Assembly (NCBI GenBank): GCA_026770705.1 | Contig: JANJGN010000009.1 | Coordinates: 163,556,001 to 163,620,000, forward strand | Length of the DNA stretch: 64,000 nucleotides | Reading direction: 5' to 3' | DNA from: Isurus oxyrinchus | Taxonomy: Eukaryota | Part shown: one piece after another, positions 3,100 through 46,224 of the stretch | Layout of the letters: each line of letters opens with the position of its first letter | Position numbering within the stretch: position 1 is the stretch's first letter | The notes under the pieces: model-generated | Told to the model about the DNA's origin: nothing | Databases searched by the model: none | Seen by the model: the letters and a program-made list of their open reading frames with translations, nothing else | Translations under genes and position numbers: made by a program

Positions 3100-6000
3100 T
3101 GTTACAGGGCAAACACGTTGGCAGTAAGTGTTTGAAGGTTAAGCAGCTTCAGCTCAGAACAGACACTGAGACACATCAGGGAGAAGGAAAGTTACCTGGA
3201 TTCTTTGTGCCAGGAGGCAATCACAGATCTTAGGACAGGGTGAGTGTGACTGCGAGTGCGGCAGGTAAAGGGACCCAGAGGGCAGGAGCGCAGGAGCCTC
3301 AGCCTTTACAATTGTTCTACAGGTCTGAACTTTTCTCAGCTTGTTTGGACAAGAGCAGCGGGTGAGCAGGGGGGATGAGCGAACTGACCATGGCACCATG
3401 GCACAGGAAGCCATCCAAGTGGGGGGACCAAACAGGAATGTAGCGGTAGTGAGGGATAGTATAGTCAGAGGGATTGACTCTGTTCTCTGCAGCAAACAGC
3501 GTGAGTCCACACAAGCAAGTTGCCTGCCCGGTGCCAGGATGTGGGACGTTGGCTCGGGGCTTGGGAGGAACTTGCATTGGGAGGGGGAGCACCCAGTCAT
3601 CGTGGTCCATGTAAGCACCAACGACATAGGCAGCACAGAGAAGGTGGTTCTGCACAATCAGTATGAGGAATGAGGCATCAGATTAAGAAGCAGAACCACA
3701 AAGGTCATAACCGATGGATTATTACCTGAGCCATGTGCAAATTGCCACAGGACAAATCAGACTCAGGAAGTGAATGTGGCTCAAAGGCTGGTGTGGAAGA
3801 AGTGGGTTCTGGTTTGTAGGGCACAACAACCAGTACTGGGGAAAGTGGGATCTGTACCATTGGGATGGTCTACACCTGAACCGTGCTGGGACCAGTGTTC
3901 TTGCAAGCCACATAACTAGGGAGGTAGAGAGGGTTTTAAACTAAATAGTGGACAACAGATCATATTTGGGATAATGTTGTAATTCAAGGAGCAGAAACAA
4001 GTCAAAAGATAAAGGTATTATTAGGAAAAATGAAAAACAGACACTGACAAGGGGGGATAGAGAGAACAAATCTAACAGTAAATCAACAGATGAAACTAAA
4101 AGTTTTTAAAAGCATAAAAGGATAAAACTAAAAGCTCTGTATCTGAATGCACGTAGCATTCAAAACAAAACAGATGAACTGAGAGCGCACATAGAAATAA
4201 ATAATTACAATTTGATAGCCATTACGGAGACTTGGCTGCAGGAGGACATGGATTGGGATGTGAATATTGAAGGGTACAGGGTACTTAGGAAAGATAGGAA
4301 GCGAGGAAAAGGTGTAGCGGTGGCTCTGTTAGTGAATGATGGTATTAGTACAAGAGAGGAAGAAATAATTGGAGCTTGTCAGAAAGTCATGGTGATAATC
4401 ATGGGAGACTTTAATTTACATATAGAATGGAAAAGTCAGATGGGCAAAGATAGCCTAACAGAGGATTACATTGAATGTTTTCAAGATAGTTTCTGAGAAC
4501 GGCATGTTCTGGATTCAGCCAGACAGCAGGCTATACTAGACCTGCTATTGTGCAATGAGATGGGAGGAATTAACAATCTCACCATGAAGATGCCCCTAGG
4601 AAACAGTGAACATAATAGGATGAATTTTACATTCAGTTTGAAGGAGAGAGGAGTGGGTCTGCGTCTAAGGCGGGGATTTTTGGGCCCTGCTGCTGGTGGG
4701 ACTCGCTGTGGGGGAGGCAGTTCCCCAGTCAGAAGCCCCACTGACTTGCGACAGGACAGGAAGGGCCGGCGAGCGGGTGTGGAAAATCCCACTGTAAGTT
4801 TTTAAACTTTAATAAGGGCAATTATAAGGACATGAAAGCTGGGATGGCTAAAGTGAATTGGCAAAATAGGTTAAGGGACAGGTCAATCAAGATGCAATGG
4901 CTCATATTTAAGGGGATATTTCAGAATGCACATTCCAACGAGTAAGAAAAAGTCTAAGTGACGGACACACCATCCGTGGTTAACTTGAATGTTTAAACAT
5001 AGTATCAACCTCGAAGGAAAAGTATATAATTCTGCAAAGAGAGGTGGCAGGTCAGAAGATTGGACAGAATATAAGGAACAGAAAAGAATGACTAACAGAC
5101 TAATAAGAAGGGAAAATTTAGTCTATGAGAGAATATAACAGGAATATAACAACAGATAGGAAGAGTCTTTATAAGCACGTAAAAAAGAAAAGAGTGAACA
5201 AAGTGTGTGCTGGTCCTATAGAAGGTGAGCCTGGAGAATTGATAATGGAAAACAAGGAGATGGCAGATGAATTGAACAGGCATTTTGCACCAGTCATATT
5301 GAAAATGTTAGAAGCTATTATTAAAGAAATTATAGCAGGACACTTGGATAAGGTCATGGTCACCAGGCAGAATCAACATGGTTTTGTGAAAGGGAAATCT
5401 GTTTATCCAGTTTTTTGGAGTTCTTTGAGGAAGTAACATGTGCTGTGGATAAAGTGGAACTGGTGGATGTACTGTACTGAGGTTTCTAGAAGGCGTTTCA
5501 TAAGTTATTGTGGAAAATAAAAGCTCACGGTATAGGGGGTCACATACTGGTATGGATAGAAAACTGTCTGGCTAACAAGAAACAGAGTAGGCATGAATGA
5601 GTCTTTTTTAGTTTGGCAAGATATAAGAGTGTTGTGGCACAGGGATCAGTGCTGGGACCTCAACAGTTTGCACTTAATATCAACGACTTGGATGAAGGGT
5701 TTGAAGGGATGGTTTCTGAATTTGCTGATGACACAAAGATAGGTAGAAAGTAAGTTGTGAGGGGGACATAAGGAGGCTACAAAAAGATATAGATAGGTTT
5801 AGACATTGGACAAAGATCTGGAAAATGGAGTATAATGTGGGAAAATGTAAAATTGTCCATTTTGGCAGGAAGAATAAAAGAGAAGCTTGTTGTCTTAATG
5901 GTGAGAGATTGCAGAGCTCTGAGGTGCAGAGGGATCTGGCTGTCCTAGTGCATGAATCACAAAAGGTTAGTATGGAGATACCGCAAGTAATTAGGAAAGC

Positions 6001-6465
6001 TGATAGAATGATTTCATTTATTGTGAAGGAGATTGAATTCAAAAGTAGGGAAGTTATTCTTCATCTGCATAGGGCACGAGTGAGACTACATTTGGAGGAC
6101 TGTGTACAGTATTGGTCACAATATTTAAGGAAGGATGAAATGCATTGGAAGCAGTTCAGAGAAGGTTTACCAGGCTAATACCAGGAATGGGTGGATTGTC
6201 TAATGAGGAAAGGTTGGACAGACTAGGCTTCTATCTGCTGGAGTTTAGAAGAGTAAGAAGCGAATTGATTGAAACATATAAGTTCCTGAGGGGTCTTGAC
6301 AGGGTGAGTGCAGAGAGGATGTTTCCTCTTGTGGGAAAATGAGGGGTCACCAATTTAGAACAGAGATTAGGTGATTTTTTTGAACTCAGAGGCTCGTGAG
6401 TCTTTGGAAATCTCTTCCTGAAAAGGTGATGAAGGGGAGGCTTCGAATATTTTTAAGGTAGAGGT
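3100..6465 (+). mobile_element. Degenerate CR1 LINE (SGNH esterase ORF1 + APE/RT ORF2)
   Basis: VVRDSIVRGID, CLPGAR, VHVSTNDIG, DGLHLN (ORF1); IAITETWL, MGDFN, NQHGFVKGKS, YNVGKCKIVHFG, EAVQRRFTRLIPGM (ORF2); many stops and deletions. Confidence 0.9.
4669..4794. mobile_element. Small Harbinger/Tourist-type MITE inserted in CR1 ORF2 (also at ~34141-34266)
   Basis: Imperfect TIRs GGCGGGGATTTT / AAAATCCCACTG flanked by TAA on both sides; interrupts the CR1 reading frame. Confidence 0.55.
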
Positions 6466-6610
6466 GGAGTGGTACAAATCAGCAGTAACTTGTGGCAACT
6501 CACGATTCATTGGCTTTTTTCTTCATCGTCAAAAGTTGCTGATGATTTTCACATTAAAAGAGGTGTTTGTTGTTCATATCCCATTATATTTTCAGTACGT
6601 TCTAGCCCAT

Positions 6611-7200
6611 TGTTATAGAGTTGATTTTCCAGGCAACTTTTCTGGGTGGAAACATTGAACTTTATTTACAAGACAGCAGCAGCAGCTACATGTGTGTATC
6701 TAACTCTATAACTAAAGGACAAATCCCGTGGAGGTTCCCCATGCTGCAAATTGGTTGGTTTACACAGATCATGTTCTCTTACAACAAAGGATTATTCTTA
6801 ATGTTACAGTCCTACATTGATCAAAACTATAATTATTACATTCCTCACCCTTTACCTTTTCTGTACATTTGTATTTACAAGGATGTTGATCTCATAACAT
6901 TAAAATACTTCCACAGGTCATGAAATTATAAGCTTGGTCTTTCAAATGGTTCCATGTGGAACGTTTTAGTTTCATGACCTCAGATTCTCTGACAGGAACC
7001 ACAGTCTCTGCAATAACATCAGGTACCTCATTAGACACAGGCAGATCAGTGTCGTCCACTCCGACAGAGACATCGGGCATGACTATCCTTGGCTGTACAA
7101 TTTTAACAGGAACAACAGGTTCAACAATGGCTACAGGTGGAAAATTATTTTGTGGGGTATCTCCATTCGTTTTAAATCAATCAGGAGCTTACCGGTGATC
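6611..7200 (-). mobile_element. Gypsy-type LTR retrotransposon remnant: integrase C-tail, polypurine tract, 3' LTR (6611-6840); copy at ~36089-36690
   Basis: - strand KLKRSTWIRKPLERPSL* in copy B resembles the RRSxRxRKPPERL end of Gypsy pol; PPT GGTAAAGGGTGAGGAA precedes TGTAAT; TG...CA termini. Confidence 0.55.
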
Positions 7201-7499
7201 TACAAAGATTAGTAAATAAAACCAAAATATTAAGAAATCTCTGTATTCAATTTGACAACTAAATTTCAGAAATGAAAAAAATACTTCTGTTCCTGTGGGG
7301 TTTGTGGAAATTGGGAGGGGGTTCCTGTTCTAAATCACTTCACAATTCAGTATAAATACTAGCTCAGCTCATCATTATCCATATGTTCTAACTTTTTAAC
7401 ATTCTTGTTTTCAGGATTTTATATCCTTTCAATGAAAATTAGTTTAGTTCTTTTGTTAAATATAACTGACAGAAGTTCAAGTTCTCAGGGGTCAGATTT

Positions 7500-7657
7500 C
7501 ATCAGCTGCCTTAATGTGGTTTCATGACCTGGCTTCCTGCTATCTTCTTCCTCATTTAAATTCCTTGTATCATTTATATTAGACAATTATTTCAACGTGA
7601 GAAACAAGAGCTGAGTGTCTGGAAACAAGTTCTGTCCTGATCTTTGTGAACAAAACG
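7500..7657 (+). promoter_or_regulatory. Putative proximal promoter of gene A (E-box, RUNX, two ETS cores)
   Basis: CAGCTG 7503, TGTGGTTT 7515, GGCTTCCTG and CTTCCTCATTT within 160 nt of the ATG; motif match only. Confidence 0.35.
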
Positions 7658-7694
7658 ATGTGGATTTTGATTCTCCTCATTAGTTCTCTGCCCG
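7658..7694 (+). CDS. Gene A (activating-type CD300/pIgR-like Ig receptor) exon 1, leader MWILILLISSLP
   Basis: ATG at 7658, hydrophobic signal peptide, phase-1 donor G|GTGAGT; identical exon in copy B at 37142. Confidence 0.85.
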
Positions 7695-9549
7695 GTGAGT
7701 GACAGCCAGAGCTGGATGTTCCGATATTCTGAGTTGGTTTAACTCTCGTGCGCTGGTTATACAGGAGATGTTTAAATATTTGGAGACATGCAAAGGCACA
7801 AGAGAGGTCTTGGGCACAGTGGGTAGTGTCTCTGTATCTGAGCCAAAAGCTCTGTGTTTGAGTCCCACTTCTGTTCTTGTTGAGAATGGAAGGCGCGTTC
7901 TAACCAGGACCAACAGATTGATTATCAACCTGAAAATCTTCCAACAGACCGAAGGCTGGTGGTAAGAGGGTTTAAGATCCCAGTCCAACATGTTTGATGT
8001 GGAGTGGTGCCGCTCATTCTGTTGTCTCCGGAGGTTAGTGACCTGTTCCAGGGAAAACAAGCTTTGGAAAGCAAAAGTAAACATGTGCTTTGTCTGCCGC
8101 ATCCGTCTCTAGATGTGGGAAGTCTCCTAAGTCTAAAGGCACAGAATAGTCAGCAAAACCAAATGAGTAATAATTGTGAAGTATTTTATTACCCTGTGAA
8201 TTTACTATCACACCATGGGAATAGTTAACAAATAAACTGAACTGCATTATTAATTATGAATGATAAGTAAAGGAGAATTCAATTTTCAGAAAGCTATGCA
8301 ACATTTTGAAAATGAAAACCTTTTTTAATTGGTAATTTTCAATATAATCTGATGTCCAGTATACACTGAAGACTGCAGCGGTAATAATCCCACAAATAAA
8401 ACATGTCCCAAGTTGGCGAATATTTCTGTTTTTTAAAGTACATTTGATGAAATATTGTGTTATGAGGCTCTCTCAGTGACACTGTTCCTCACTGGTAGAT
8501 GGTTGGTCTACATCACTCTTCTCATAAGTAGCCTTTTCTTGTTCATTCTTTAACTTTAAGAAACTAGATTTTGCTCATCACTCAGTATTGCCACCTCTCC
8601 ATCATTTTCGATGAATCTATTTTATAACACACAATGTTAAACTCCCAGCCCCATCTGCTCTTAACCACCTCCCCAAAATAGTTTGTGCCTCTAGCTGATC
8701 AATTTTATGCAGAATACTTGATGTACTTATGGACAGGAAACTGAATCATGTTTCTGTCTGTTTGGCAATCTTCTTCTTTTCAATCCTTCCTCTTTCTGAT
8801 CTGATCTCTTTCCCATTCCCTTTTCATCTGTAACTTTCCCTGTATCTTTTTCCTTTTCTTCATTTCTCTCTAGCCATTTAATTATTTTCAATCCCTCTTT
8901 TGTTATTTTAGTGCAAACTCTTTCTCAACAGCATGAGTTTCTCTCCCAGCAAGGCCATTGGTCTCATGAACGTTCAAGTCAAGGCATCCAAATCCCTACC
9001 TCAGGAATCCATCCATACTGTAAGGCCACCTATCACACAACCTCGCAAACTTTCAAGACCTTCAAATCCTACCTTTGGACATCCCTAACTCATTCAAGAT
9101 CTGAACAACCCCTCCTGCAAGGACACAAACCTACCCCGCACCCCACCCACCTCAGATCAGAGCAGGGAACTGTCGGCTCCTGTGACCCCCTCCACACTGC
9201 TCCCCAGCCGACTGCAAATCAGGCCTGTCAATCAGACTGGTTTCTGGCTGTGGAACCTCCTGATGATGTCAAACGCAGTCTAGGGTGAAACCCCAAAATA
9301 TGAGGCAGAACCCCAATTTCCAGGTTCCCTCACTCTACCAGCCCCTGCCAATATGTCAAGAAAATGTCCCAATTATCTCACGAGTATATCATTGTCTGAG
9401 ACGTGCTTTGGAACAGAGTGAGGCTCTGATAAGTGTCTATATGAATGATTACTCTCATCACAAACTTGATGGAATTTAACTCATTAAAATGTATCTGTTT
9501 GAATTAAGCAGTTATTTCCTGTTCAATTCCTGAAATGTTGTCTCCTCAG

Positions 9550-9864
9550 TTTCAGGTGCATTGTGGGCAAAAGAGAGAGTAACAGGAGTTGTGGGAAGAG
9601 CGATCACAATAGAATGTCACTATGATGCGTGGAGGTACAAGTCACATATAAAATATTGGTGTCGCGGCTGGACTCGCCAGTGTAATGTTGTAGCATCGAC
9701 AAATTGGCCAAATGGAAGAATATCGATCACAGATAACAAGTCACAAGGATTATTTATTGTTACTATGGAGAATCTTCACTCAGGAGATACAGGATGGTAC
9801 AGCTGTGGTATTGAAGCAACTGGCCACGATCCAATGTTTAATGTAAAGCTACAAATATCTTACG
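9550..9864 (+). CDS. Gene A exon 2, V-set Ig domain of CD300/pIgR/TREM type
   Basis: Acceptor TCTCCTCAG; ITIECHY...KYWCRGWTRQC...DTGWYSCG gives the B-strand Cys, C-strand Trp, DxGxYxC and the extra C-C' Cys pair; 315 nt, phase 1/1. Confidence 0.92.
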
Positions 9865-10141
9865 GTACATTTCTTACGGATTTTCTTTATTACTCTCGAC
9901 TGAAATGTCTGCTCAATGTTTTATCTGGGAGGAAACATGACAGCTCCGATATCCCGAGGCTCCACAGCAATGCAGAGTCTTAAAGGTAAAGGGCAGAGGT
10001 CGGGAAATCCAACTCATGTTACCCAAACCCAATTCATGGCCTGTCCAACATGTCAGAGTTGAACTTTACAAGTGAACTAAACGGAAATTGAGAAGTTGTT
10101 TTGATGGTAAAAGAAGCCTCTTTATTAATTGTTGAGACATT

Positions 10142-12730
10142 GGGCTGGATATTCAGCCTCAAAGCGGGTAGGGGGAATTCGGAAAATTCCCCGCTCGGCC
10201 TTGGAAGAAAGTGCCCACAAAGGTGGGATTCCCATTGCTGGGAGCTGTGCCCGGGCTGCAGTCTGGCCAGCCACACCAGGAAGAAATGCAGAGGCAGCCA
10301 CAGGGGCTGCCGGCTGCGGAGACGGGCTGTTTAAAAGGCCCCTCCTTAATGCCCTTGGACTTTGTAACAGCTAAAATCAAAACACAAAGGCCCTTCACCC
10401 CTCACCCCTCACAGCCCACAAAGGGGGTGGATGTGAGGGGAAAATTTGTCATGAGGGGGCTTGGAGGTGGGTGGAAGTGTACAGCTTGAAGTCAGGAGCA
10501 TGAGGGGGTATAAGGCGTGGGTATAGGGATAGAGGGGGAACGAAGGGCCAAGCGGGTTGGATGGGGGTGTGACTTGACATAGCGGGCATGAAATGCACCT
10601 TTTGAACTTAGCTGTTAAAAGATCCCCTCATGCAGACCAGTGTTTACAGCTCCTCTGAGGGGCTTTGGATTACGACTCATTCAAAACCTGGCCCGAGTCC
10701 ATGAAAATTGCAGAGGAGTAGGACGTCACTTTGGTCTGAAGGCTGCACAAAGCACAGGGTAGAGGCCCTGGACTGAGACACCAGCCTTTATCTTGTACAG
10801 AAAGTGTTCACATGTGAGTGACATGAACATTGCTCATCAAAACAAGGAGCGATAGGCAGGGAGACATTCTTTGGAGTTTATTGACAACAATGAACAGTAT
10901 GTACAAGTGATTAACACCCGTGCCCAGGACGTGAAACTACATCTCCTCAGCCACGCGGTGTCTGGCGGCACCGTCGAGACCTTCTGTGCTCAGTGGGTGA
11001 CCACGGGGGTTGGGGTCCTTTATCCAGCCTCTTAATCACATTTTGGTTTGATGTTGTAAGTGTCCTTTAAATCATGTCTTTGGTTTTGCAGTGACCCTAA
11101 CTTAGGGGCTGCGTTTTATATGATCCCTCATTTTGTTAATTTAGTTTATTGGGTTGGCTTTAAAAGAGCTACATCTTCTCAACTTTCCTAATCCTCCCGC
11201 TACATCTTGGTGCTCTGCAGACATCCACAGTGGAGGTAAAGACAGTCTGCTGACTGCTATGCTCTGTCTGTGATAACTTTGGCGGGCGTCCTCTGGAGGC
11301 CTGAGGCCTGGAGGGCCCCGGCTTCCTTTCGAGGTCCTACTGTGTGGCATTAGCACCCTCCTTGGCCTGTGGACTTGGAGCTGTCAAGGTCACAGTAAGA
11401 GGGGAGTTACCAGGATGAATGGCCCCGGAGGGTACACATGTTGATCCTTCTCGCTATGGGTACCCAATGGCCATTGGCTGAATCCTTGAGGAGCAGGTGT
11501 AGCTGGAGTGAGATCGAGCTGCCTGCACCCCTCTCGCATACACACTGTCAGGGGCCAACTATACATCAGCAATGGAGTTCAGCCCCGCAGCAATGTAGGA
11601 ACGATGCCCTGGACCAACGTCTCCATGGCAGCTGCCATCCTACCAGTGTTGACCTCGGTGCAGTGACATGCCGGCGCTATCACCTCAGAGTGCAGGCGGA
11701 CGGACTCCTCCATTGTGCCTTGCAATCTGAGGGGTGCAGCAGATATCCCTTCCTGATGTTCCCGCGTTGGCCTTTCCAGCTCCAGCAACTGTGACATGAC
11801 CAAATCCAGAAACGCGTCACCTGACTCGACCTCAGCAAATTTATGGCCTCCAGCTGCCCACTGAGTGCTGGACACCTGGGAAGCCCCTGCCGCTGCCAGC
11901 TGTGGATCAGGCAGTGCAATTTGCTCACCAGCTGTGACCCTGAGTCTACTCTAAAGCTAGATCTCACCGAGGGGTGTGCCTCTGCGCTGGTGGAGGGTGT
12001 GGGTGAGGGCAGTGACGGTACATCAAGGAGGGTCCCTCCAGGTTCCTCTTCAGAGATTTCTTTGGGGATTACTTGGTGTCCCTGGGTCTCCATCGGCTGT
12101 TTCCCAGATGTGCATGTGGAAGCAAGTGGAAATATTTTGTGCATGGCAGTGGCCTGTGAAACAGGACACATCACTCACAGCATGGTTGTCTGATGGATGT
12201 TGCACTGCTGGACCCTCACTTGGCTGAGCACCGCCGACCTCACCGTCAGCACAGGATTGGTCCAGGCCGTTGCCGGCCAGCTGGATGGCTCTGTTTACAA
12301 AGTACTAGTACTGTTCAGGAACATGATGTTCATATTTTCATACATGTCGCTGAATTTGTCAGTCACATTTACGCCTCTATTATCAACCAAAGAGCGGGAT
12401 TGTCCCCGATTTGCGCTAAGTGCGTTAGTGGGCGGGGAAATCGATGTTTTACCCACCGGCCACAATGGGGGGTTTTCAGGTCGCATCTTCCCAAACCCAA
12501 CGCATTAGTTATGCATTCCTGGGAAACATACCATTTCCATGGTGGGTGGGATCTCATTCACCCCAAACACCATCACTTCACTGCTTCATCAGGCCCAGCA
12601 CCATATGTAAAGTCCAGCCTCGTGCACACATCTCAGTGTTTCCAACCCAGGACCACAGCAGGGAAGATATCCCCAAGAGGCAAAAAGACTGTAGCTCCCA
12701 GGTTTAGTGAGCTGTCACTGTAACACATTG
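10142..12730 (-). mobile_element. Rearranged Harbinger-like element with Myb/SANT gene remnants (intron 2, copy A)
   Basis: GGGCTGGATATT end; - strand coiled-coil exon MSQLLELERPTREHQEG homologous to 25453-25677; inverted 5' piece 12391-12730 with RGKKTVAPRFSELSL. Confidence 0.7.
10952..11168 (+). mobile_element. Tx1-clade LINE 3' fragment with ~15-bp target duplication
   Basis: Homologous to ORF2 end/3' UTR at 47030-47243; ends AAAAGAG; flanked by CTACATCTCCTCAGC (10937) and CTACATCTTCTCAAC (11169). Confidence 0.75.
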
Positions 12731-13909
12731 TGTACACTGTGGGGGCCCTGCTGTGATGTCCTCTACTCCCACTCTGGCTGCAGTATGGACAGCGCTGTGA
12801 CCAACCAGGCCTGGGAGGCGGGGGCAGCGGTGGTATACCCACTGAATGTTATTAAGTTAACCCTCACTGTCAGATAATGTAAACAGTATGAAAAGTGTGG
12901 TTGAGAAACCCTTAGAAACTGTCCTTGCTGGATGGAAACAAATGCTGGAGAGATTGGAAATTTCTAAATGAAATGAGTGGATGCCTGATTGTTTTAGAGA
13001 ATGAAATGCAGGTACAACAAATTTTTTAGGGATCTGAGGAGAGGGCTATCTTGCAATATGATAAAGTAGAGAATATTGAGATTTTTAATTCAATTTGTTT
13101 CACACTTTTTGGTCACCATATTAACTGAAAATTTTATTTAAATGAGAGAAGGTCATCATCTAATCGTTTATTAATTGTGTTTAATTTTATGCAGTGGTGG
13201 CATTAATTGGTGATTCACTTGTGCACCTATAAACAGATGCAGACTGAAACTGCGGGTGGTGGATTTGATTAGATTCACACAGTAAACAGCACTTTAAAAC
13301 AGTTCCACAAGTCTTAACCTATCTAACCTCAGAGCTAATCTGTCTCTTTTCTGTTCAGCAACGAACACTGTAGATTTAAAAAGCTATAGAAGTCCAATAA
13401 TTTTACCACACAGTGCTTTCACATTGGGGTGTCCACTGACAGAAACTGGGTCTTCAGATCTGGGCCTTGTTCACACTGTCTCCTGGGAATTCTGACCAGC
13501 TACCCTGCTGTCTTCAGGGAGATCTGGCCAACCATCCTGCTGTGTTCTGGGAGATCTAAGCAGCTACCCCCTCACATAGGCTTCAGTATTCCCTTAAATG
13601 TGTTTCTTCTCTTTCATCTCTCTTTGTCGTACCCAGTCTGTTCAGAAATGCTTTTATCCCAGGATTGATTAAATCAATCTTCACTTTAATTCTTAGACTT
13701 GTAAAAACAAACTTACCCTATCTTTATGTCACTTCATGACACCTTTTTACAACCTGCATATATCCCCCTTTGAACTAAAACAAATTAATTCAAACTATTC
13801 CTGTTATTGCTTCATGTACAAAAATGTTGAAGTTCTCTTTTGTTCATTAACATATCAAAACCACTTCTTACTGTTGACTTTTGACCCTATCCACTGATGA
13901 GGCAGTCCA

Positions 13910-14190
13910 CGTCATGGAACCATAAACTTAAATCTGGAGATAGGATCGTCAGGGATGTCAGGAAGCACTTCTTCACGCAAAGTATAGCGGAAATCAGGAA
14001 CACTCTCCTCAAAAAAGCTCTTTCGCTCAATTGAAAATTTCAAAACTGATTGACAGATTTTATCTGGTAGCAATATTCGGGTTATGGGACCCCGGTAGGT
14101 AAATGGACAGAAGATACTGGTCAGTTGGGATTTAATTGAATTGTGGAACAGGCTGAAGGGGCTGCATGTCCGAATCCCTTTTCCATGTTC
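13910..14190 (+). mobile_element. CR1 3'-end fragment
   Basis: GATGTCAGGAAGCACTTCTTCACGCAAAG and downstream 3' UTR-like sequence; copy at ~48535-48815. Confidence 0.55.
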
Positions 14191-14833
14191 TGGAGCCCCA
14201 GTTAATTTTTCAGTGGTCTGGGCCTTGTGAGTAACAATGTGCTGTGAAACAAGCTCACAAACAGTTAGCATTTCAAAGAGACACTTTCCAATCACCAGGC
14301 AAACTGTGACCTGTGTTGTTTCAGAGTACAGTTTGTGACAGTGAAAGCAGTGAAGGCCTGCCAAACCTCATTAAAAATGTTGGTGAAAGTGTCACTTTTC
14401 TCTGGCTAATCCCTTGACCAAAGAGGGAATTTTAATTCCCCTCCCCCATCCTGCATCGTGTTGAAGCATGATGGGATTTGCTGGATCCAGAACCTTCTCC
14501 AGCACAGCTTGTGATCCAGGAGACACACGAAAGCTTCACCCCCACCCCCAGGCAAATGTTTTATACAATTTCTCCCTCCCCATGATTGGCCAATCCTGCC
14601 CCAAGCAGCAAAGTCACCCTGACTCCCTCCTCGCTGCTGTGCTCCGAGGACAAATTCCCACCAATTTCTCCCATGTCCAGTTCCCAAACCCAAATTTAAC
14701 ATCCACCCCATAGAGTGGTAGATGTGTTGGTGAGATTCCAACATGGCAGAGCCTGGCTGAGATGAAGTGCAAAGTTTGAAGAGTATTTGATTATTAAATG
14801 TTCAGTATCTGAATGTTTCTTTCTTTCCAACAG

Positions 14834-15163
14834 AACCCGTGTCTGTTCCTGTGCTTAGATTTTCATCACCAGCAAATGTCTCATGTTCTGGGAGTTCAGT
14901 GTCCGTCTCCTGTGAGTCTGTCCAGGGATCCCTTCCCATTCAATACACATGGTATGAAAAGACCCTGTCTGAAGATTCAAAGATCTCTGACACCAATAAA
15001 CTGGATCTACATTGTCAATCCTTCAAACAGCAACATCATCAATATTACTGCACAGCCTTGAATAATCAGGGAGAAAAATCCAGTGACACTGTCACTGTTA
15101 ACTTAACACTCATGAATGTAACAACGAAAAGCTGCAGTTATGTGATACAAATTGGAAACATTG
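14834..15163 (+). CDS. Gene A exon 3, C2-type Ig domain
   Basis: Acceptor TTTCCAACAG, donor G|GTAAGT; PVSVPVL...VSCESVQGSLPIQYTWY...YYCTALN; 330 nt, phase 1/1. Confidence 0.9.
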
Positions 15164-15489
15164 GTAAGTGTTACTTTCTACAAACAATGTGGCGAATGAA
15201 TGTTTTAAATTCATGTCTATCCAAACTGGTCACTGTTTCAGTTCCTTCAGTCAATCTGAGAAATTGCAACTGGCCAAATTCACTCTCTCTGGTTCCTCAA
15301 ACATTCTGAACAAGGTCACTAAGTTGCATTTTTCATGAAAAATGGACAGGATCAGAAAATATCCCCAAAACATGCAAAAATATTGCAGAATCTCCAACAA
15401 ACCCATCGAATCAAAATAGCATTTGATTGACAGAGCTTTCATAAAGCAATTTGTCTATTTCCAGCAGATGGAATTGTGAAATGCAACCT

Positions 15490-15960
15490 CCAACTGTTGT
15501 GTCCTAGTTTGGGAAGGATATCACTGATAGAATAGAGAAGAATTGAATTAAAATGAACCCTTGGATGAGAGGTTTTAGTCATGAGGAAAGTATCATCACA
15601 ACTGCGGTGAAAGACCAGCTGGAGGACGTGGAAATTGTTAGAAATTTGGATAAGGTAACTCTAACTATTTCCACTAGTCAGTGAGTCAGCAACAAGAGAG
15701 CATTAACTTTAAAATTATCACTAAAAGGACAAAGGGAGAAATTTGGAGAATTTTATTGATGCAAACTGTTTTTAGGACATGGAATGCCCAACTGAAATAA
15801 GTTTACAAACAAATTTAATAATAGATTTTAAAAGGGAAACAAATGTATGAGGGTGTGGGAAAAGGACAATGAAATGGAATTAAATGACGAGATCATTCAG
15901 AGAACCAGCATTGGAGCGATGGGCTGAATTCCCTCCCCTGTGTTGTAAAAATTCCATCAT
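15490..15960 (+). mobile_element. Old CR1 3' fragment
   Basis: Degenerate ORF2 end and GATGGGCTGAAT 3' motif; copy at ~51265-51735. Confidence 0.5.
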
Positions 15961-16479
15961 TCCAGACAAAATCTCAAATTATCCTGTATAAAAAATTTAT
16001 TCGCTCCCCATAAAACAATGACCCTGGTTCTGACATAAGGAGGACTTTAGCCTATTTGAATGTAACGGTTCAATTTTCTGCAGAGTGGGTGCAGCATGTT
16101 CACCGAGAAACACCAACATGGGCACAAAACAAAGAGAATCACATTTTCCCCTGAGCAGCAGGAGACAGGAATTTACATATGCAAATATAATGACTCTGGT
16201 CATGTGGTCTCTTGCCTCAGTTGTCAGGGAAGAAGGGTGGAATTTTACACCCCCATTGCGCCAGGGACTGGGCTGTAAAATGCAGCCAGCCATTCTAAAC
16301 TCCATGCACTCCAGCAGGACCATAAAATCCCACTGTCACATGGCTCTGAGCAAAGGCTATCAGCAGCAGGTAGAAATTACCCCTGTAAACTGTGTTTGTA
16401 CTGGAGTTGTCAGCAGGGACTCAGTTGCACTCTGACCTTTGATGCCAGTCTTTTGTAGTTACAAGTTCCCCTTAAGAAT

Positions 16480-16900
16480 TAAAATTCAGGCTGATACCAC
16501 TGTCCCGCACTGAGGTAGTGCTATACTGGTGGTGGTGCTGCTGTGTAGATGAGGTGTTAAACTGAGGATCCACATCCCCCTTAGGTAGATGTAAACATTT
16601 CCAGGGTATTATTCACAGAATAGGGAAGTTCTCCTGGTGTCCTTGAAGCCTTTATTCCTCAACCAATACACACAAATTGGGAGCAGGAGCAGGCCACTTG
16701 GTCTTTTGAGCCTGTTAATGTCACTACAAAACAGATCATCTAGTGAATGTTTTACTGATGTTTGTGGGGCTTTATTGTGTAGGAATGAACTTCCACGTTT
16801 CCCAACATTAAAACTTTGGCTTTACTTCAAAAAAGTACTTCATAGGCTCTGAAGCACTTTGGAATATCCCAAGTTGTGAAAGGTGATGAATCAGCACAAC
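16480..16900 (+). mobile_element. Deu-domain SINE fragment
   Basis: CACTGAGGTAGTGCT...AGATGAGGTGTTAAACTGAGG...AGGTAGATGTAAA resembles the Deu domain; copy at ~52260-52670. Confidence 0.55.
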
Positions 16901-17486
16901 TTGTTTCTTACTTTTTGAAACAAACCATTTATTAAAATACATCTGAACCAATTATCTGAGTGCAAACTGCAGGGGGGGGAGGGGGAGGGAGGAGCCAGTC
17001 CCAGCAGCAAGGTGGTCATTATAATTAAATGGTCAGAAAATCACTGGCAGGTTTGAGACATTCATGGTCAGTGGGTGAAGATTCTCATCTTTACTGCAAG
17101 CTCAGAAAACTGCCCCCAAAGTGCAGGAAGTGACCATTGCCAGTATTAGGATGTGACTGTTTAATGTGTTCACATGAAATTCATGTCAAGAATGTGTATC
17201 TCTGGATTGCAGTCCACCAACTTGAGCCCTTACCATGCCCACTTCTAACTCTGTCCCACCAACTCTCAGATATAGGAAAGAAAGTGGAATTACCAGTAAA
17301 GATAGATCACCATCAGGTATCAGCAACCTCTCCACTTGTGACCAGAGAGGGGTAAATTACACAGAAATCAATTCTACCAGCCAGGCTTTTCCTCAATTAA
17401 TGAGGTTCCATTTGACAATGATGCTCTCTCAGTTGACTACAAGTGAAAATGAGGTGAATCTGAATGTTATTCCCTTGTGTCAACAG

Positions 17487-17604
17487 GACCTGAGTATTGT
17501 TGTGAAGCTTGTACAAGAGTATCACCAACTACATATTTGACAAGTACAGATATAATTTCCACTACCAATCGAGCCACAACTTCAGATCCCGAAAATGCTG
17601 AAAG
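17487..17604 (+). CDS. Gene A exon 4, Ser/Thr-rich stalk (GPEYCCEACTRVSPTTYLTSTDIISTTNRATTSDPENAE)
   Basis: CAACAG acceptor, AG|GTACAA donor, phase 1 in and phase 2 out; same length (118 nt) and frame in copy B. Confidence 0.8.
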
Positions 17605-18415
17605 GTACAATGTTCTCATGGATTGGCATTGCTTCCATATGTGAGAGATACAATTGGCCAAAGGAGTGAAAGTTGTTCATTAATTGTAAAGTAGCTCATC
17701 AGAATGGAAATGGTGGCTGGGTTTATATCATGCTGTTGTGTTAGCTTCTTAATGAGGCTGCATTTTTCTGTTGGAAAATACAAGCAAGGAGTGAGCTTTT
17801 CCATTGTGTTGCCGCTCAGATGGTGTTTTTTGCCTTATTCACCTTGATTACTTCACCGCTAAGGTAACCTCACAGTGTGTGAGGAGTTGTACTTGTCAAA
17901 CTTACCTTGCTGCTGTCTACACTGACAGAGTGGTTGTATTTGGGCTGATGAAAAGGAAGAATTAGCGTGATATATCTGCACATCCCTTGGTTTCACTAAT
18001 GAGAGACATCTTGCAACTCTGGTCCCGTTTCCATATGATTAGCCTGAGCTGTCGACAATAAGTAGCAGAAATTGTAGTCCGATGTAAACACTCAGGAATC
18101 GGGTCTTTGAAGTTACAATGGTGATAAAGACAAAACGCCAACTAAATGTCAAACAGAAAGAGGGACAGTTGGAAATGGGCAGCAGGTATGTCCGCAGCTG
18201 TGGAGAAAATAAACACGTTCATGGTTTGGGTGCAGACACTTCTTCAGAATTCTAGTCCACACACGAAGCGAAGCAGGTCCACTCACCCCACAGATCCCAA
18301 CTGAGCTGCTGAATGTTTCCAGAATCTTCTGTTTTCCATTCATATTTCTAGCACATGCAGTGCACTTACTTTTATGCAGATTATTGTCAATGATTTAAAA
18401 AGTATTGAAAGTCTA

Positions 18416-18700
18416 GGGTCTGAATTTTCCGCTCGGCGGGGGTGGGGTTGGGGTAGAGCGGGAGCGAGCACGGGCAGCTGTGGACCCCATCGCCATCCAC
18501 CATCGGGTTTTTGATGCCATTTTGCGCGGGCGGCCAATTTAGGCCATCCCAGCGTATTTCCCGGCTCCCGAGGATAGCGGCAGTGGGCGAGAAGCGGGGG
18601 GTGTGCACAGACAACCGGGTCCAATGGTGACCCAGCGGCCTGTTTAAATGAAGGCCTGGCAGCCTGTTCCAGCTGCTCACAATGGCCAGTGCAAAGAATT
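18416..18700. mobile_element. Harbinger-TIR-type GC-rich element fragment at the duplication breakpoint
   Basis: Begins GGGTCTGAATTTTCC, like the ends at 23981, 55094 and 63596. Confidence 0.55.
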
Positions 18701-18948
18701 TTCACTTTCAATTCCGCTTAGCCTTACAGTTAGACATTATGGACATGCTAAAGAAATTTGCTTCGTTTGATTTTTATCTAATGATCATGAAGTTGATAAG
18801 TAGAACTTTAGTTGATTCTTTCAGCTAAAGTCCCTTGTCTACTTTATGTTGCTGCAAAAAATTACAGTGTAAAGCGGAGAGTCATGTTTCAAAAATGAAA
18901 CAGTCTCATTTCATTTAAATGGTTTGATATTTCTTCTCTTTTGCTCAG

Positions 18949-19039
18949 TTACATTATCTGGGATGTGATACGCTGGGTGCTCTTTACTCTCCTGGTGATT
19001 TGTGCTGTTTCAGGCACATGGTGTACGAGAAAATCTAAG
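18949..19039 (+). CDS. Gene A exon 5, transmembrane segment with Asp/Arg (SYIIWDVIRWVLFTLLVICAVSGTWCTRKSK)
   Basis: Polypyrimidine acceptor TTCTTCTCTTTTGCTCAG; phase 2 matches the stalk exon; hydrophobic run followed by RKSK; donor GTGAGA. Confidence 0.8.
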
Positions 19040-22817: not shown

Positions 22818-22859
22818 TTCCAGACACTCAACGGATCAGATCCTCAGAGCTTGACCTAA
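22818..22859 (+). CDS. Candidate gene A last coding exon, short tail FQTLNGSDPQSLT*
   Basis: TTTTCAG acceptor in apparently non-repetitive DNA, phase 0 fits exon 5, AATAAA at 22967; no independent support. Confidence 0.3.
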   Translation, partial: FQTLNGSDPQSLT

Positions 22860-23980: not shown

Positions 23981-26900
23981 GGGCAGGATTTTCCGAGCCC
24001 GCTGGCAGCATGTGTAATAAGTGGCATGTGTGGATAATATGGTGTGAGCTGCTTCACAATGGCAGCATGAAGGCAGGTTGTGATCGTCCGCTCAGCCCAC
24101 CTACAGCGGGTCGTGCTTCCCGCTATCGGTCAGCGGGGAGCTAATTGTTATACATCAGCATGTAAATAAAAGGCCATCCTGCCAGGCTCTTGGAACCCGG
24201 CCGTATCCTCTGTCCACGTTAGCGGGAAAGCACGCCGACGTGATTCACAACAGCACACAGGCAATTTGTACCTGGTGGCCTTGACTCTGGGGGAAATGGG
24301 GTGAGTGAGCAGCAGCGTTCTCCACAGCTTGCCTGTTGTTTACAGGCTTCAGGGATGCCTGACCCCGGATGTGACTGCTGAGAGGGGGGTCTCCGGGGGG
24401 GGTAAGAGCTGGCCAGCCTTGAAATGCTGAGGGCAAGGTGTCTAGTGGCAAGTGCTGGCTGCCTTGGAGGTGGATACTGAGGGGGAGATGTCCAGGGTCA
24501 TGTGATGACCAACCTCAGAGGCGAATGGTGTCGGTGGCTCCATGCTCAGGACCATCTCAGATGCAGCCATTAAACTTAAGACACATCTGGTGCTGTGTCC
24601 TCCTTCAGCACCTCAGCCCATTCAGGAGCTAGTGCGCAGTATCACTGGTCACAGATGCTGGTGTGATGGGGGTCAGCCCCACCTTAAAGATGCTGAGAGC
24701 TCAAAGTGAGAATGAGAGAACTCTGTGGGGCCTGCCCACTCCATTCTGGCAGCAATGCCCAGCTCCGCCGAGGTGCGGGCATCAGTAATGTGTCCAGGGA
24801 GTGTGAGGCTGGACCATCACTGTTATCTGAAGGTTGCACAGAGCACAGGGAAAAGGCCCTGGACTCATACACCTGCCCTTTATCTTGCACAGGAAGGTTT
24901 CACATCTGAGTGACAAGAACACTGCTCATCAGAACAAGGAGCCACAGGCAGGGTGACGTTCTTAGGAGTTTACTGACAATAGTGAACAATATGTACATGT
25001 GACCAACACCCGTACCCAGGCTGTGCAACTACATTTCCCTAACTTTCCTAACCCTGCCACTACATCTTGCTGCTCCCCGGACATCCACAGCAGAGGTGGA
25101 GCTAACCTGCTGCATGTGACGCCCTGTCTGTGATGACACTGGTGGGCGTCCTCTGGAGGGCTGAGACTTGGTGGGCCCCGGCCTGCTTTCGGGGTCCTGC
25201 TGTGTGGTAGTGGCCCCCTCCTCGGCCTGGGGGGCTGGAGCTGCTGAGATCCTAGGAAGAGGGGAGTCGGGTTGGCCAGTCACTCCCAGAACCTCCTGAG
25301 TCGATGGCCCCGGAGTGTGTACCTGCTGCTCCTCCTCCCTATCGGTGTCTGAGTGCCCCAGGCTGACTCGGAGAGTGGAGGATGTAGCTGGAGTGAGATT
25401 GAGCTAATTGTAACCCCTCTCTCATACACACTGTTGGAGGCCAAATATAGCATCAGCGATGGAGTAAACCATGCACAGGAGTGACGTCCTGGGCCAAGGT
25501 CTCCATGGCAGCTGCCATCCTGCCAGTGTTGACCTCAGTGTATTGCAGCACCGGAGTTATCACATCAGCCTGAAGATAGACAGACCCCTCCATCATGCCT
25601 TGCAATCTGAGGAGTGCAGCGGGCATCCCTTCCTGATGTTCCCGAGCTTGCCTTTGCAATTCCAGTAACTGTGACATGACCGAGCCCAGAGGCTGTCATC
25701 TGACTCGGACTCAGCAACATTGTGGCCTCCAGCAGTCCTCTGAGGGGCAGGGGACCTGGGAAGTCCCTGCCTCCACCTGCTGTAGATCAAACAGTGCGAT
25801 GTGCTCCCAGATTGTGATCCTCAGGCTACTCTAAAGCTAGGGCCCACTGAGGTGTGTGTCTCTGCGCTGGCAGAGGCTGTGGGTGAGCTCTGTGACAGAA
25901 CTTCAGGGAGAGTGCCTTCCGATTCCTCTTCAGAGGTTTCTTCAGGAGACCCTGGGTCATGGACTCTGTCGGCTGCTTCCCAGATGTGTCTGTGAAAGCA
26001 AGGGGAGATAATGAGTGCATGGCAGTGGCCTGTGATAAAGGACACATCACTCACAGCATGGTTATCTGATGGGTGTTGCACTGCTGGACCCTCACTTGAT
26101 AGGGCAGTGCCAACCTTACCATCAGCACAGGACTGGCCCCGATCATTGCCGGTCAGCTGGATGGCTCTGCTTTCGAATTCTGTCAGAACTTTGATCTCCG
26201 GCATCCCTCCACCTGTCTCTGACCTTTCCCCCCTGTTGTGTGCCAGTTTGTCCTGTGTGGATATGGATGGGGACAGTGTGTCAGGATGCCTGCAGGGGAC
26301 AGATGATAAGTATGCCTGGCCTGTGTGGGTGGGGAGTGGTCCCGTGGACAGGGTGAGAACAATGAAGGTGTATGTGAACAGGTGAATGGTGACGTCCCTT
26401 GCACTGGCAGTGAGTGAGGGCCCTGTAGATGTGTGATGGGTTTGTGAGTGTGTGAGTTGGGTTTGTGAAAAGAGTGACTTACCCTGGAGGAACGGAGGAG
26501 ATCATTCATCCTTTTGCGGTACTGGGTGACTGTCCTCCTCTGCAGGACGTTCACACTGACCACCGCTGCCTCCACCTCCCAAGCCGGGTTGGGTACTTTG
26601 CTGCCCACCCTGCGGTCAGAGCGTGGGTTAGAGCACATGCCGGTGCCCCTCCACGGCATCCAGCAGTCGCTTGAGGGACCCATCAATGAAGCAGGGGTCT
26701 GCAGTCTTTTTTCCCTCTGTTGGCCATGTCTCCCAGGCAGGGGTGGTGAGCTGGTGGCGATGAGCGCTTTGATGGTAGCTGCCTTTTAAAGATGGTGGCC
26801 AGCGTGATGTAACAGCGGGGTGATGGTGCGTGGGCGAATGAGAGCCCGCTTGCCATGGAAACGGTGTGTTTCACGGGGGTGAATAAATAATGAGCCGGGT

Positions 26901-27003
26901 TCGGGATGATATGGTGTGAAAACCCGTCATCTTCGTCGGCAGGTAGGACTCCATTTTACCCACCCGCTACCGCACTTAGTGCAATTCTGGGAAAATTCTG
27001 CCC
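23981..27003 (-). mobile_element. Harbinger-like DNA transposon (non-autonomous) carrying a multi-exon Myb/SANT pseudogene (ATG 26727, stop 25029)
   Basis: TIRs GGGCAGGATTTTCC / GGAAAATTCTGCCC; MANRGKK(fs)TADPCFIDGSLKRLLDAV, AWEVEAAVVSVNVLQRRTVTQYRKRMNDLLR, coiled-coil exon; no transposase recognised. Confidence 0.8.
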
Positions 27004-28566: not shown

Positions 28567-29380
28567 ATGAGGTGGAGGCAGTGACTGAGGAGGCTGAGGT
28601 GGAGGCAGTGACTGAGGAGGTTGTTGGAGGCTGAGGTGGAGGCAGTGAGTGAGGAGGCTGAGGTGGAGGTGGTGGCTGAGGAGGCTGAAGTGGAGGCAGT
28701 GACTGAGGAGGCTGAGGTGGAGGCAGTGACTGAGGAGGCTGAGGAAGAGGCAGTGACTGAGGAGGCTGAGGTGGAGGCAGTGACTGAGGAGGCTGAGGTG
28801 GAGGCAGTGACTGAGGAGGCTGAGGTGGAGGCAGTGACTGAGGAGGCTGAGGTGGAGGTGGTGAATGAGGAGGCTGAGGTGGAGGTGGTGGTTGAGGAGG
28901 CTGAGGTGGAGGCAGTGACTGAGAAGGTTGAGGTGGAGGCAGTGACTGAGGAGGCTGTGGTGGAGGTGGTGGTTGAGGAGGCTGAGGTGGAGGCAGTGAC
29001 TGAGGAGGCTGATGTGGAAATGGTGACTGAGGAGGCTGAGGTGGAGCCAGTGACTGAGGAGGCTGAGGTGGAGGCAGTGACTGAGGAGGTTGAGGTAGAG
29101 GTGGTGACTGAGGAGGCTGAGGTGGTGGCAGTGGCTGAGGAGGCTGAGGTGGAGGTGGTGCCTGAGGAGGTTGAGGTGGAGGCAGTGACTGAGGAGGCTG
29201 AGGTGGAGGTGGTGCCTGAGGAGGTTGAGGTGGAGGCAGTGACTGAGGAGGCTGAGGTGGAGGCAGTGACTGAGGAGGCTGAGGTGGTGGCAGTGGCTGA
29301 GGAGGCTGAGGTGGAGGTGGTGCCTGAGGAGGTTGAGGTGGAGGCAGTGACTGAGGAGGCTGAGGTGGAGGTGGTTGCCG
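28567..29380. repeat. 27-bp minisatellite array (copy B, longer)
   Basis: Same unit, roughly 30 copies. Confidence 0.9.
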
Positions 29381-30302
29381 AGGCGATGGAGGTAGTGAAT
29401 GTGGGGGTGGAGGAGGAGACATCAGCAGCGGCAGCAGCAGAGACAGTGACTGAGGCTGAGGAGGGGGAGGCAGCGGCTGTGACAGTGACAGAGGGAGAAG
29501 CAGCGAAGGCGGCAGCAGCAAAGGCTGAGGCCACAGTGAGGGAGGCTGTGGAGAGGGAGCTGGAGGTGGGGCAGAGGCAGCGAGGAGACGGTACGAGACC
29601 AGGAGCAGCAACAAAACCTGCCTTGTGGTTGTGAGGCTCAGGGCAATGGCGACTGTGAGTTGATATCTTCCATGTGCCATGTGTGTGTCTCCGAGTCAGC
29701 GCACCGGACCACACTGCTTCTGCCCGATTAGGGCGCTTCAGTGGAGTCCGACACCAGTCCAGTGCCACCCAGCTCCCATTCCCGAGGACAGGTGATGGAA
29801 CCTGCCCAGTGCCAGGATGAGCTGCTTGGTAAGATCGGGAGGTGGGAAGTAGAGAAGGCAGCCGACCAGGAAAAGCTGGAGGATATCTCCAGGATTACTG
29901 ACTGTCTCCAAGAAGAAACTCTTGTAGCCTTCAGGCAGGGTATATATATGTTTATATAGCTGCAATTTAAAGTTACCTGCCACATCCCTTTTAACACTTT
30001 CTAATGCAGCATCGCTCTGATCAGAATCAGATTTATTGGGGTTGTGCAAATGTCTCCCCAGCCTCTGATATAACAATAAAAAGCTGCTTTTTCCTTTCCA
30101 GTTGCAGTAAGAGGAATGTCCCAGCCTCTCAATGTGACAGGGCAGCCCAGGACTATGTCTCTCAGTGCAACACCCAGGAACACACACAGTGCAGCCCCCA
30201 CATTGATTGTTCCAGTTGTGCGGGGAAAGCGTGCATGTGGAGTAAGTGTACAATTGGGAAGATATTGATTCTCACAACATTTCCACGGCTTTAAATCAAA
30301 TT

Positions 30303-30406
30303 GAGTTCTGTTGAAGGGTCATGAGGACTCGAAACTTCAACTTTGCTCTTCTCCGCCGATGCTGACAGACCTGCTGAGTTTTTCCACTTATTTCTGTTTT
30401 TGTTTT
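30303..30406 (+). mobile_element. Penelope terminal fragment (copy-B-specific insertion)
   Basis: Absent at the matching copy A site (~2097); matches the pseudo-LTRs at 40256, 42690 and 44615. Confidence 0.75.
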
Positions 30407-30459
30407 ATTCTGAATGTTTTGTCTGGAGTCAATTACAAGCAGCGTAGACAATGTCTGTG

Positions 30460-30702
30460 ATAAAAACAAAGAGAACTGCGGATGCTGGAAATGCAAAACA
30501 AAAACAGAATTACCTGGAAAAACTCAGCAGGTCTGGCAGCATCGGCGGAGAAGAAAAGAGTTGACGTTTCGAGTCTTCATGACCCTTCGACAGAACTGGA
30601 CTGTCGAAGTCGAAGGGTCATGAAGACTCGAAACGTCAACTCTTTTCTTCTCCGCCGATGCTGCCAGACCTGCTGAGTTTTTCCAGGTAATTCTGTTTTT
30701 GT
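30460..30702. mobile_element. Palindromic Penelope terminal insertion with 15-bp TSD
   Basis: TAGACAATGTCTGTG at 30445 and 30703 (single at copy A ~2136); inverted arms 30497-30591 / 30609-30703. Confidence 0.85.
30559..30597 (-). ncRNA. Hammerhead-like motif, second intact copy
   Basis: Reverse complement AGTT-CTGTCGA-A-GGGTC-ATGAA-GACTC-GAAA-CG-TC-AACT. Confidence 0.5.
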
Positions 30703-30845
30703 TAGACAATGTCTGTGTTTTAATTGTGTGTGGCTGTCCTCGTTTTTCACAATAAAATTTGCCAGGCTTTTACTCAACTTTTATTCTGAGTGTTTTTTCT
30801 GAGTTTATGGAGATATAACCTCATATTCTGCTGAAATGCACTTTA

Positions 30846-31219
30846 NNNNNNNNNNNNNNNNNNNNNNNNNNNNNNNNNNNNNNNNNNNNNNNNNNNNNNN
30901 NNNNNNNNNNNNNNNNNNNNNNNNNNNNNNNNNNNNNNNNNNNNNNNNNNNNNNNNNNNNNNNNNNNNNNNNNNNNNNNNNNNNNNNNNNNNNNNNNNNN
31001 NNNNNNNNNNNNNNNNNNNNNNNNNNNNNNNNNNNNNNNNNNNNNNNNNNNNNNNNNNNNNNNNNNNNNNNNNNNNNNNNNNNNNNNNNNNNNNNNNNNN
31101 NNNNNNNNNNNNNNNNNNNNNNNNNNNNNNNNNNNNNNNNNNNNNNNNNNNNNNNNNNNNNNNNNNNNNNNNNNNNNNNNNNNNNNNNNNNNNNNNNNNN
31201 NNNNNNNNNNNNNNNNNNN
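30846..31219. other. Assembly gap (N run)
   Basis: 374 N. Confidence 1.
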
Positions 31220-31723
31220 ACACACAAATATCCTCAATAACCCCACAAACACCGATACGCACAGACAGCAATATCGTCCATCACCCCACACACACACACA
31301 GAAACCTAAGCACACACAGTAATATCCTCAATCACCCCCACACACACACACACATACACACACACACACAAACCTAAGCACACACAATAATATCCTCAAT
31401 CACCCCCCCCACACACACACATACACACACACACACACAAACCTAAGCACACACAGTAATATCCTCAATCACCCACACACACACACACACACATACACAC
31501 ACACATACACACACACACACACAAACATAAGCACACATAGTAATATCCTCAATCACCCCCACACACACACACACATTCACACACACACACACATACACAC
31601 ACACACACACACAAACCTAAGCACACACAGTAATATCCTCAATCACCCCCACACACACACACATACACACACACACACACACAAACATAAGCACACACAG
31701 TAATATCCTCAATTACCACCCAC

Positions 31724-31770
<47 letters not shown>

Positions 31771-31830
31771 GCACACACAAACATAAGCACACACACTAAT
31801 ATCCTCAATCACATACACACACACACAAAC
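31220..31830. repeat. Compound minisatellite: AAACCTAAGCACACACAGTAATATCCTCAATCACCCC + (CA)n
   Basis: Tandem ~55-90 bp units; only a short version at 2280-2360 in copy A. Confidence 0.9.
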
Positions 31831-46209: not shown

Positions 46210-46224
46210 TTACATTTCCTCAAC

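Follow-up and report, generated by a model that had tools for sequence, protein, structure and literature searches.

Near-identical promoters and ectodomains on two different transmembrane and tail modules in a tandem pair of shark MDIR genes, and the likely meaning of their common edge

The homogenisation of paired immune receptors is already known from mammals, and the shark and ray case described here would be an extension of it. For the KLRC, KLRI, KLRB and PIR pairs the term 'merohomogenisation' has been used (PMC3210942). As in the locus studied here, the opposing variants of those pairs are older than speciation, and homogenisation is patchy, affects only the part that binds ligand and extends into introns, as far as the available text of that study describes it (PMC3210942). 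In contrast, those pairs are mammalian and span tens of millions of years, whereas the modules considered here predate the shark–ray split and the shark block runs from the promoter to the stalk (PMC3210942). For SIGLEC11 and SIGLEC16, the accessible part of the report likewise describes a shared upstream region and shared ectodomain exons, lineage-wise conversion and a simple repeat at the 5' boundary, over ~3 kb as against 17.6 kb here; no defining 3'-boundary motif is given in that part, whereas a repeat edge is present here (PMC5701461). Primate CD300A and CD300C, of a related Ig family, also combine a four-ITIM long tail with a short tail plus charged transmembrane segment (TM), and their extracellular part has been converted; the ITIM/ITSM tail of CD300A works with SHP-1/2, while CD300C uses Glu where gene A of our locus uses Arg and, according to the available text, is often lost, in contrast to the A module kept in many sharks and rays (PMC12447643). 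New activating KIR and Ly49 receptors, as here, are ectodomains recombined with an existing activating signalling domain, but that domain is, in the portion of the source at hand, inhibitory-derived by mutation and short-lived, whereas the modules here are unalignable and old (PMC2213150). Ectodomain-limited homogenisation appears also in the accessible account of the CEACAMs (PMC7042247), and mobile-element insertions may, according to a further partly available source, disrupt converting regions (PMC2720389).

No account of exchange boundaries in the MDIRs of cartilaginous fish was found in our literature search, whose coverage lay mostly outside subscription journals. The original MDIR paper is said to date from 2006. 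MDIRs have been treated, in the available text of one report, as CD300/TREM/pIgR-like families with activating and inhibitory forms (PMC3031540). Skate MDIRs and the genes of our locus are alike in having a V and a second Ig domain, a stalk and the same two tail types: skate MDIR5 (ABC86800.1, P0071) has an RW TM like gene A, and skate MDIR3 (ABC86797.1, P0041) a long tyrosine tail like gene B. The locus differs from the skate MDIRs in that its genes have one V–C unit, not two or three, and in that the A tail is cut to 11 residues, compared to 15 in MDIR5.

Here we describe a block of near-identity between genes A and B that stops abruptly in the intron between stalk and TM. We consider it probable that this point, 18412 in A and 54176 in B, is the 3' edge of a repeated exchange of promoter plus ectodomain between two old TM/tail modules, of which one is likely activating and the other likely inhibitory.

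The gene pair and its exons

The 64-kb window, i.e., the whole stretch of DNA that was analysed, holds two tandem, same-strand CD300/pIgR-like receptor genes, A and B (Table 1), and no Ig exons besides theirs were found in it. The V exon has 114 homologues, every one from cartilaginous fish and including skate MDIR3 and MDIR5; the closest are from Carcharodon and Cetorhinus (81–88%), as would suit a lamniform shark, identity of the V domain to MDIR5 and MDIR3 is 55–59%, and its best PDB matches are pIgR and CD300. With a CD300/pIgR-type V domain homologous to named MDIRs, a C-type Ig domain, a Ser/Thr stalk and a TM, and with an activating-type form (charged TM, short tail) and an inhibitory-type form (tyrosine motifs) both present, A and B are, by their sequences, shark MDIRs (CD300/pIgR-like). 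Their ectodomains are near-identical, as in paired receptors (90% for the second Ig domain plus stalk and, at the protein level, 77% for the V domain). Gene A has an arginine in the TM and an 11-residue tail without tyrosine, and gene B a neutral TM and four tyrosine motifs; A is likely the 'on' (activating) and B the 'off' (inhibitory) gene. Receptors with an arginine in the TM pair with FcR-gamma, and A is predicted to pair through this residue with an ITAM adaptor such as FcR-gamma, while B is predicted to recruit SHP-1/2.

Table 1. Positions of gene features, shared block and repeats in the window
Feature	Position	Strand	Remarks
Gene A exon 1, signal peptide	7658..7694	+	37/37 identical to B
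Gene A exon 2, V-type Ig domain	9550..9864	+	Pfam V-set E 1.9e-10
Gene A exon 3, second Ig domain	14834..15163	+	Exon model, Pfam
Gene A exon 4, Ser/Thr-rich stalk, ends in phase 2	17487..17604	+	Putative RNA contig covers it with 0 differences
Gene A exon 5, Arg-bearing TM (putative activating type)	18949..19039	+	29/30 identical to Cetorhinus P0002
Gene A exon 6 (predicted), 11-residue tyrosine-free tail	22824..22859	+	Best of 607 AG acceptors, z 6.6
Gene B exon 1	37142..37178	+	Exon model
Gene B exon 2, V-type Ig domain	39042..39356	+	Exon model, Pfam
Gene B exon 3, second Ig domain	50611..50940	+	Exon model, Pfam
Gene B exon 4, stalk, ends in phase 2	53250..53367	+	Exon model
Gene B exon 5, uncharged TM	54865..54953	+	28/29 identical to Carcharodon P0010; putative RNA contig, 0 differences
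Gene B exon 6, cytoplasmic	57043..57095	+	Exon model, homologue comparison
Gene B exon 7, four tyrosine motifs (1 ITSM, 2 ITIM, 1 ITIM-like)	57726..58037	+	
Shared promoter and ectodomain block, copy A (17.6 kb)	815..18412	+	577 mismatches in 15,674 aligned columns, 3.7%; self-BLAST HSPs
Shared promoter and ectodomain block, copy B	28982..54176	+	Longer than copy A owing to B-only insertions (up to 5.6 kb)
3' limit of A/B identity	18412..18416	.	Last common base 18412, then 4 nt before the repeat
27-bp minisatellite holding 5' limit of block, copy A	835..1177	.	
27-bp minisatellite holding 5' limit of block, copy B	28626..29371	.	
GC/CpG-rich interspersed repeat, left TIR-like end only	18417..18700	.	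Right end approximate
3.0-kb element with both TIRs of the motif of the 18417 repeat	23981..27003	.	Myb/SANT-like remnant, minus strand
High-copy repeat, B-only part of stalk–TM intron	54345..54780	.	From contig depth, loose ends; limits approximate

The predicted tail exon of A (acceptor 22824) matches 22 short tails of other species, and is a homologue of the 15-residue tails found elsewhere, shortened by an earlier stop. The ancestral 15-codon frame is kept in 22824–22871, with the stop at codon 12, and an alternative acceptor lies 6 nt upstream in the same frame (22818). A tail exon at 21014, as used by the Cetorhinus model P0002, was rejected, being inside a high-copy repeat and without a match to the 22 short tails; in 21014–21121 a repeat-derived splice acceptor is thus taken as the tail of A by that gene model, which implies the same repeat composite behind the A-type gene of Cetorhinus.

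Transcript-like contigs were recovered from the runs X20 and X24, whose RNA nature is a guess; among the matching runs listed, none is recorded as RNA. A 484-nt X20 contig agrees with the A stalk exon at every position and contains 93 letters more, and the depth of the TM-A bin (6.41) equals 9.69 × 93/141. On B, the same piece overruns the stalk exon by 5 letters, as the first bases of TM-A would, and X24, from another study, has the same 5-letter overrun. A 312-nt X20 contig contains TM-B with 0 differences, and its depth also adds at the end of the stalk exon. From these lengths and depths, we infer that the contigs fit splicing of the stalk to TM-A in two studies and to TM-B in one.

The shared block, its edges and the repeat at 18417

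An earlier note, made from the letters of this stretch, had described A/B similarity that continues ~800 nt past exon 4 and stops abruptly at ~18412/~54176, and self-BLAST and alignment agree with this: the last HSP (14667–18412 versus 50444–54176, 96.2% identity) ends 808 nt past the stalk exon, in the stalk–TM intron. These last 808 nt of shared intron 4 have 24 A/B mismatches (3%), and a contig of run X1, possibly the source sample, bridges the junction (18369–18643), the window differing from it at 4 of 275 letters. The common promoter-plus-ectodomain block that the earlier note had inferred on different TM/tail modules was likewise recovered, from ~815 to 18412 in A. At its 5' edge identity is 78% upstream (147/189) versus 290/291 downstream.

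Divergence along the block is uneven, from 0.3% to 10% mismatches per 300 nt, and overdispersed (chi2 176 on 41 non-coding bins, the bins being hand-picked). Just after the minisatellite, 1101–2000 versus ~29300–30200 has 5 mismatches in 899 nt, and is thus probably the most recent exchange tract. The V exon (9550–9864 versus 39042–39356) has a divergence of 9.9% as against 2.4% in the second Ig exon, with 28 nonsynonymous changes over 245 sites (0.114) and 3 synonymous ones; compared to the intron divergence of 0.038 (3.8%) this gives p 3e-7, while a test of dN against dS confined to the V exon falls short of significance (p 0.066). In the stalk exon, A and B differ by 9 nonsynonymous changes and no synonymous one. 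The pattern in the V (and stalk) exon likely reflects positive selection, judging from the substitutions between the two copies.

The alignment is interrupted at nine other places, all of them indels (A-only and B-only) and at least one with retroelement sequence, so that the cause of a break cannot be read from a repeat edge beside it. B has a nested 5.6-kb insertion of its own at 40219–45857 with a reverse-transcriptase remnant (41537–42649, minus strand), and A has segments of its own at 11714–13115 (1.4 kb, including part of a relative of the element 23981–27003) and 13207–13449 (0.24 kb). A 374-base N gap (30846–31219) lies beside a CA-rich array in the upstream region of B. In intron 4, 10 A/B differences cluster in the 68 nt of 53750–53817; a second species (organism B) carries the A state at all 8 listed sites, and a third paralogue may thus be the source of this patch in B. 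An X1 contig over 17580–18067 has mixed states (5 B and 13 A of 18 sites) and was set aside as evidence of exchange, since collapsed contigs can give the same mix.

Homology that resumes to the right of the repeat would have made the repeat a plain insertion between diverged counterparts in the terms of the earlier note, and nothing beyond chance was found there in five local scoring schemes (246–455 of 500 shuffles reach the score), nor in further shuffle tests (215/300 and 12/20). One A segment compared with the last 95 intron bases of B reached 4/300 shuffles, through a 12-nt pyrimidine-rich match in a non-collinear place. Post hoc, the score was reached by 17 of 500 shuffles in a global test with the acceptor included, and by 95 and 32 of 1000 in an anchored one; the 10-nt match of 18768 to 54180, the first unshared bases of B, to which the anchored values refer (1/45 controls), is a post hoc hint only. 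An Rfam search of 17500–19200 gave 0 matches.

As to the repeat itself, the earlier note had placed a Harbinger-type TIR at 18416. The motif is indeed at the edge, with the string GGGTCTGAATTTTCC at 18416–18430, although it fits best from 18417, base 18416 being variable (T in a contig of each of the three DNA runs compared). At no more than one mismatch it occurs at only 7 sites in the 64 kb, and its adjacency to the edge is therefore not random. Contig depth is 25,000–39,000 in the bin 18610–18750 versus 73–247 in the next bin (~100×), depths that are not to be read as copy numbers. PIF/Harbinger insertion leaves a 3-bp target-site duplication, and Harbinger families carry a transposase or Myb/SANT gene. 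No right-hand TIR was found for the repeat, so that the paired TIRs of PIF/Harbinger are lacking; no transposase or Myb/SANT gene was found in 18417–18700, and Pfam and homologue searches with its ORFs were blank. The Harbinger-type label is thus only indirectly supported, through the sibling element 23981–27003, whose single database relative scores as Myb/SANT-like at E 1e-3, below the Pfam cut-off. At 55094–55782, in the TM–tail intron of B, lies a complete element without coding sequence that has TIRs of this motif at either end, and the repeat at 54345–54780 is presumably SINE-like.

The repeat junction is also present in the second species, in which runs X5 and X10, from two studies, each have a contig that starts at 18383 and runs into the repeat, the differences from the window amounting to 19/213 and 13/195 (7–9%). 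A start 30 letters before 18413, with words of 31 letters, is what a branch exactly after 18412 would give, and the junction apparently branches in that species at the same base as the A/B edge. Being common to both organisms, the repeat is old and predates their split; with 7–9% divergence against 3% between A and B in the adjoining intron it looks older than that A/B difference, although the 7–9% may owe something to CpG decay or paralogy. The B-type continuation was found there with 1 difference in 94 at 54175–54268 and 0 in 115 at 54762–54876, other B-type intron and TM pieces differ by 5–8%, and none of the pieces listed has 31 letters on each side of 54176. A-type contigs of this species skip 88 nt of the intron (18840–18929) and a 940-nt repeat behind the TM exon (19069–20010); being ~13% diverged, they point to further, older A-type paralogues.

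These observations bear on the possibility that the end of the repeat set the boundary actively, i.e., that after cutting by a transposase, or one-ended transposition, at the TIR, repair from a B-type gene replaced everything to the left of the element a single time, long ago, later exchange merely keeping the edge. We regard this as unlikely. It would account for identity that reaches within 4 nt of the TIR-like end, for an element with one end only and for the lack of detectable homology to its right in all five scoring schemes, but the indels at the nine other places make truncated repeats ordinary in this block, and the faint 10-nt match would fit a plain insertion. Besides, receptors of opposite type match each other also in lineages as distant as Heptranchias and Mobula, and exchange hardly needs this element.

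Ectodomain and transmembrane lineages

Hidden Markov models of the two TM types recognised 42 A-type and 46 B-type segments with 0 cross-hits in 116 proteins (the 114 homologues plus A and B). The tree of the membrane-proximal Ig domain holds 58 of these 88 TM hits, 30 having been dropped by motif-based extraction rules. TM types interleave in it, with at least nine type changes forced by starred branches, and a single A-type clade is found in 0 of 200 bootstraps and rejected by the AU test (p 2.3e-54). Starred groups of A plus B type are those of Pristiophorus, Heptranchias, Stegostoma, Mobula birostris and the lamniform set. In the window and in the four non-lamniform lineages just named, identity of Ig domain plus stalk between opposite types of the same species is 0.89–0.93, as opposed to a TM identity between types of 0.12–0.38, and of 27–38% for the opposite-type partners themselves. 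The ectodomain and TM trees, whose comparison the earlier note had suggested, are thus strongly incongruent, the split in the TM tree being partly circular since the TM classes were defined from the TMs themselves. Signalling types predate speciation and ectodomains group within lineages, as in ectodomain-limited concerted evolution. The nearest ectodomain is of opposite type and from the same species in only 17 of 42 rows, with gene sets that are partial and many models that are fused, and many ray A-type genes form clades of their own that span genera, which indicates that exchange is episodic, not universal.

With these data, a single unequal crossover in this lineage, joining one front half to the existing TM and tail of the other gene without recurrent conversion, is also quite improbable. 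One long block in the same orientation, a tandem layout and sharp ends agree with it, and the available part of one account describes this route for KIR and Ly49 (PMC2213150). However, it predicts even divergence, which is at odds with the strongly uneven divergence along the block, and the same edge is found in the second species. Moreover, Cetorhinus and Carcharodon already have this ectodomain lineage joined to A and to B TMs.

The earlier note had also stated that the TM exons accept phase 2 without sharing similarity, which stands: both stalk exons end in this phase and both TM exons (~90 nt each) accept it, and the exons are effectively unalignable, with a profile–profile probability of 1.9% for TM A versus TM B and scores reached by 19/300 DNA and 35/2000 protein shuffles. 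A very old common origin of the two exons is possible. The RW pair is kept in 42 of 42 A-type TMs, and 22 proteins have a tail of 15–16 residues directly after the TM; a homologue search with the A-type TM plus tail reached only two bamboo-shark proteins. Sharks and rays alike have both TM/tail types, with skate MDIR5 (A-type) and MDIR3 (B-type) among the examples, and the modules therefore predate the shark–ray split, which took place ~250–300 million years ago.

This distribution largely refutes the view that the pair was born here, by a recent duplication that put the front cassette on a new module or by recent divergence of counterpart TM exons. The similar length and common phase of these exons and their weak protein similarity would suit such an origin, but each shares 96–97% identity with the exon of its own type in another lamniform genus, as against 35% with the exon of the adjacent gene, and no remnant of the tail exons of B was found behind gene A. 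We hold a birth of the pair at this locus to be very improbable, and the claim of the earlier note that the edge records how the pair arose was not sustained, as same-species matching also recurs in other lineages. The edge likely marks where repeated ectodomain copying stops, not where the pair was born. An assembly chimera at the junction, for which a multi-copy, repeat-rich locus and the few differences from the X1 contig might speak, deserves hardly any credence, since that contig spans the junction, contigs of the second species from two studies cross the same point and gene models of other species connect the same stalk to each TM type.

Exchange between modules and its significance

Considering these results, we favour repeated exchange of promoter and ectodomain between the two old modules. 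Such exchange between tandem paralogues would be gene conversion or unequal crossover, and would require matching DNA. Tracts would start in shared sequence, with their 5' limit in the 27-bp minisatellite, run through the promoter and the ectodomain exons and end at the first non-matching DNA, the old one-ended repeat on the A side acting as a passive stop. Tracts that ran on over the TM exon would cost the pair one of its signalling types, and selection would remove them; after each exchange the V domain would diverge again quickly, likely under selection.

The divergence of the V domain, ~3 times faster than that of the surrounding introns, points to the likely ligand-binding surface. It is also possible, if rather doubtful, that sharks and rays have a standing cassette system, in which two unrelated modules, retained from before the shark–ray split, again and again receive matched ectodomains by way of one intron, and in which, in lamniforms, an old transposon stump keeps the site of the swap at the same base in different species; if so, every change of the V domain between resets would be datable and could be read as a record of ligand pressure. 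Besides, a base-exact boundary common to species offers good conditions for finding out what brings conversion tracts to an end. Overall, if repeated exchange is the correct reading, ectodomain-limited homogenisation of paired immune receptors would reach the cartilaginous fish, beyond mammals and frogs, and the activating modules would be long-lived here, as opposed to the short-lived ones of KIR and Ly49.
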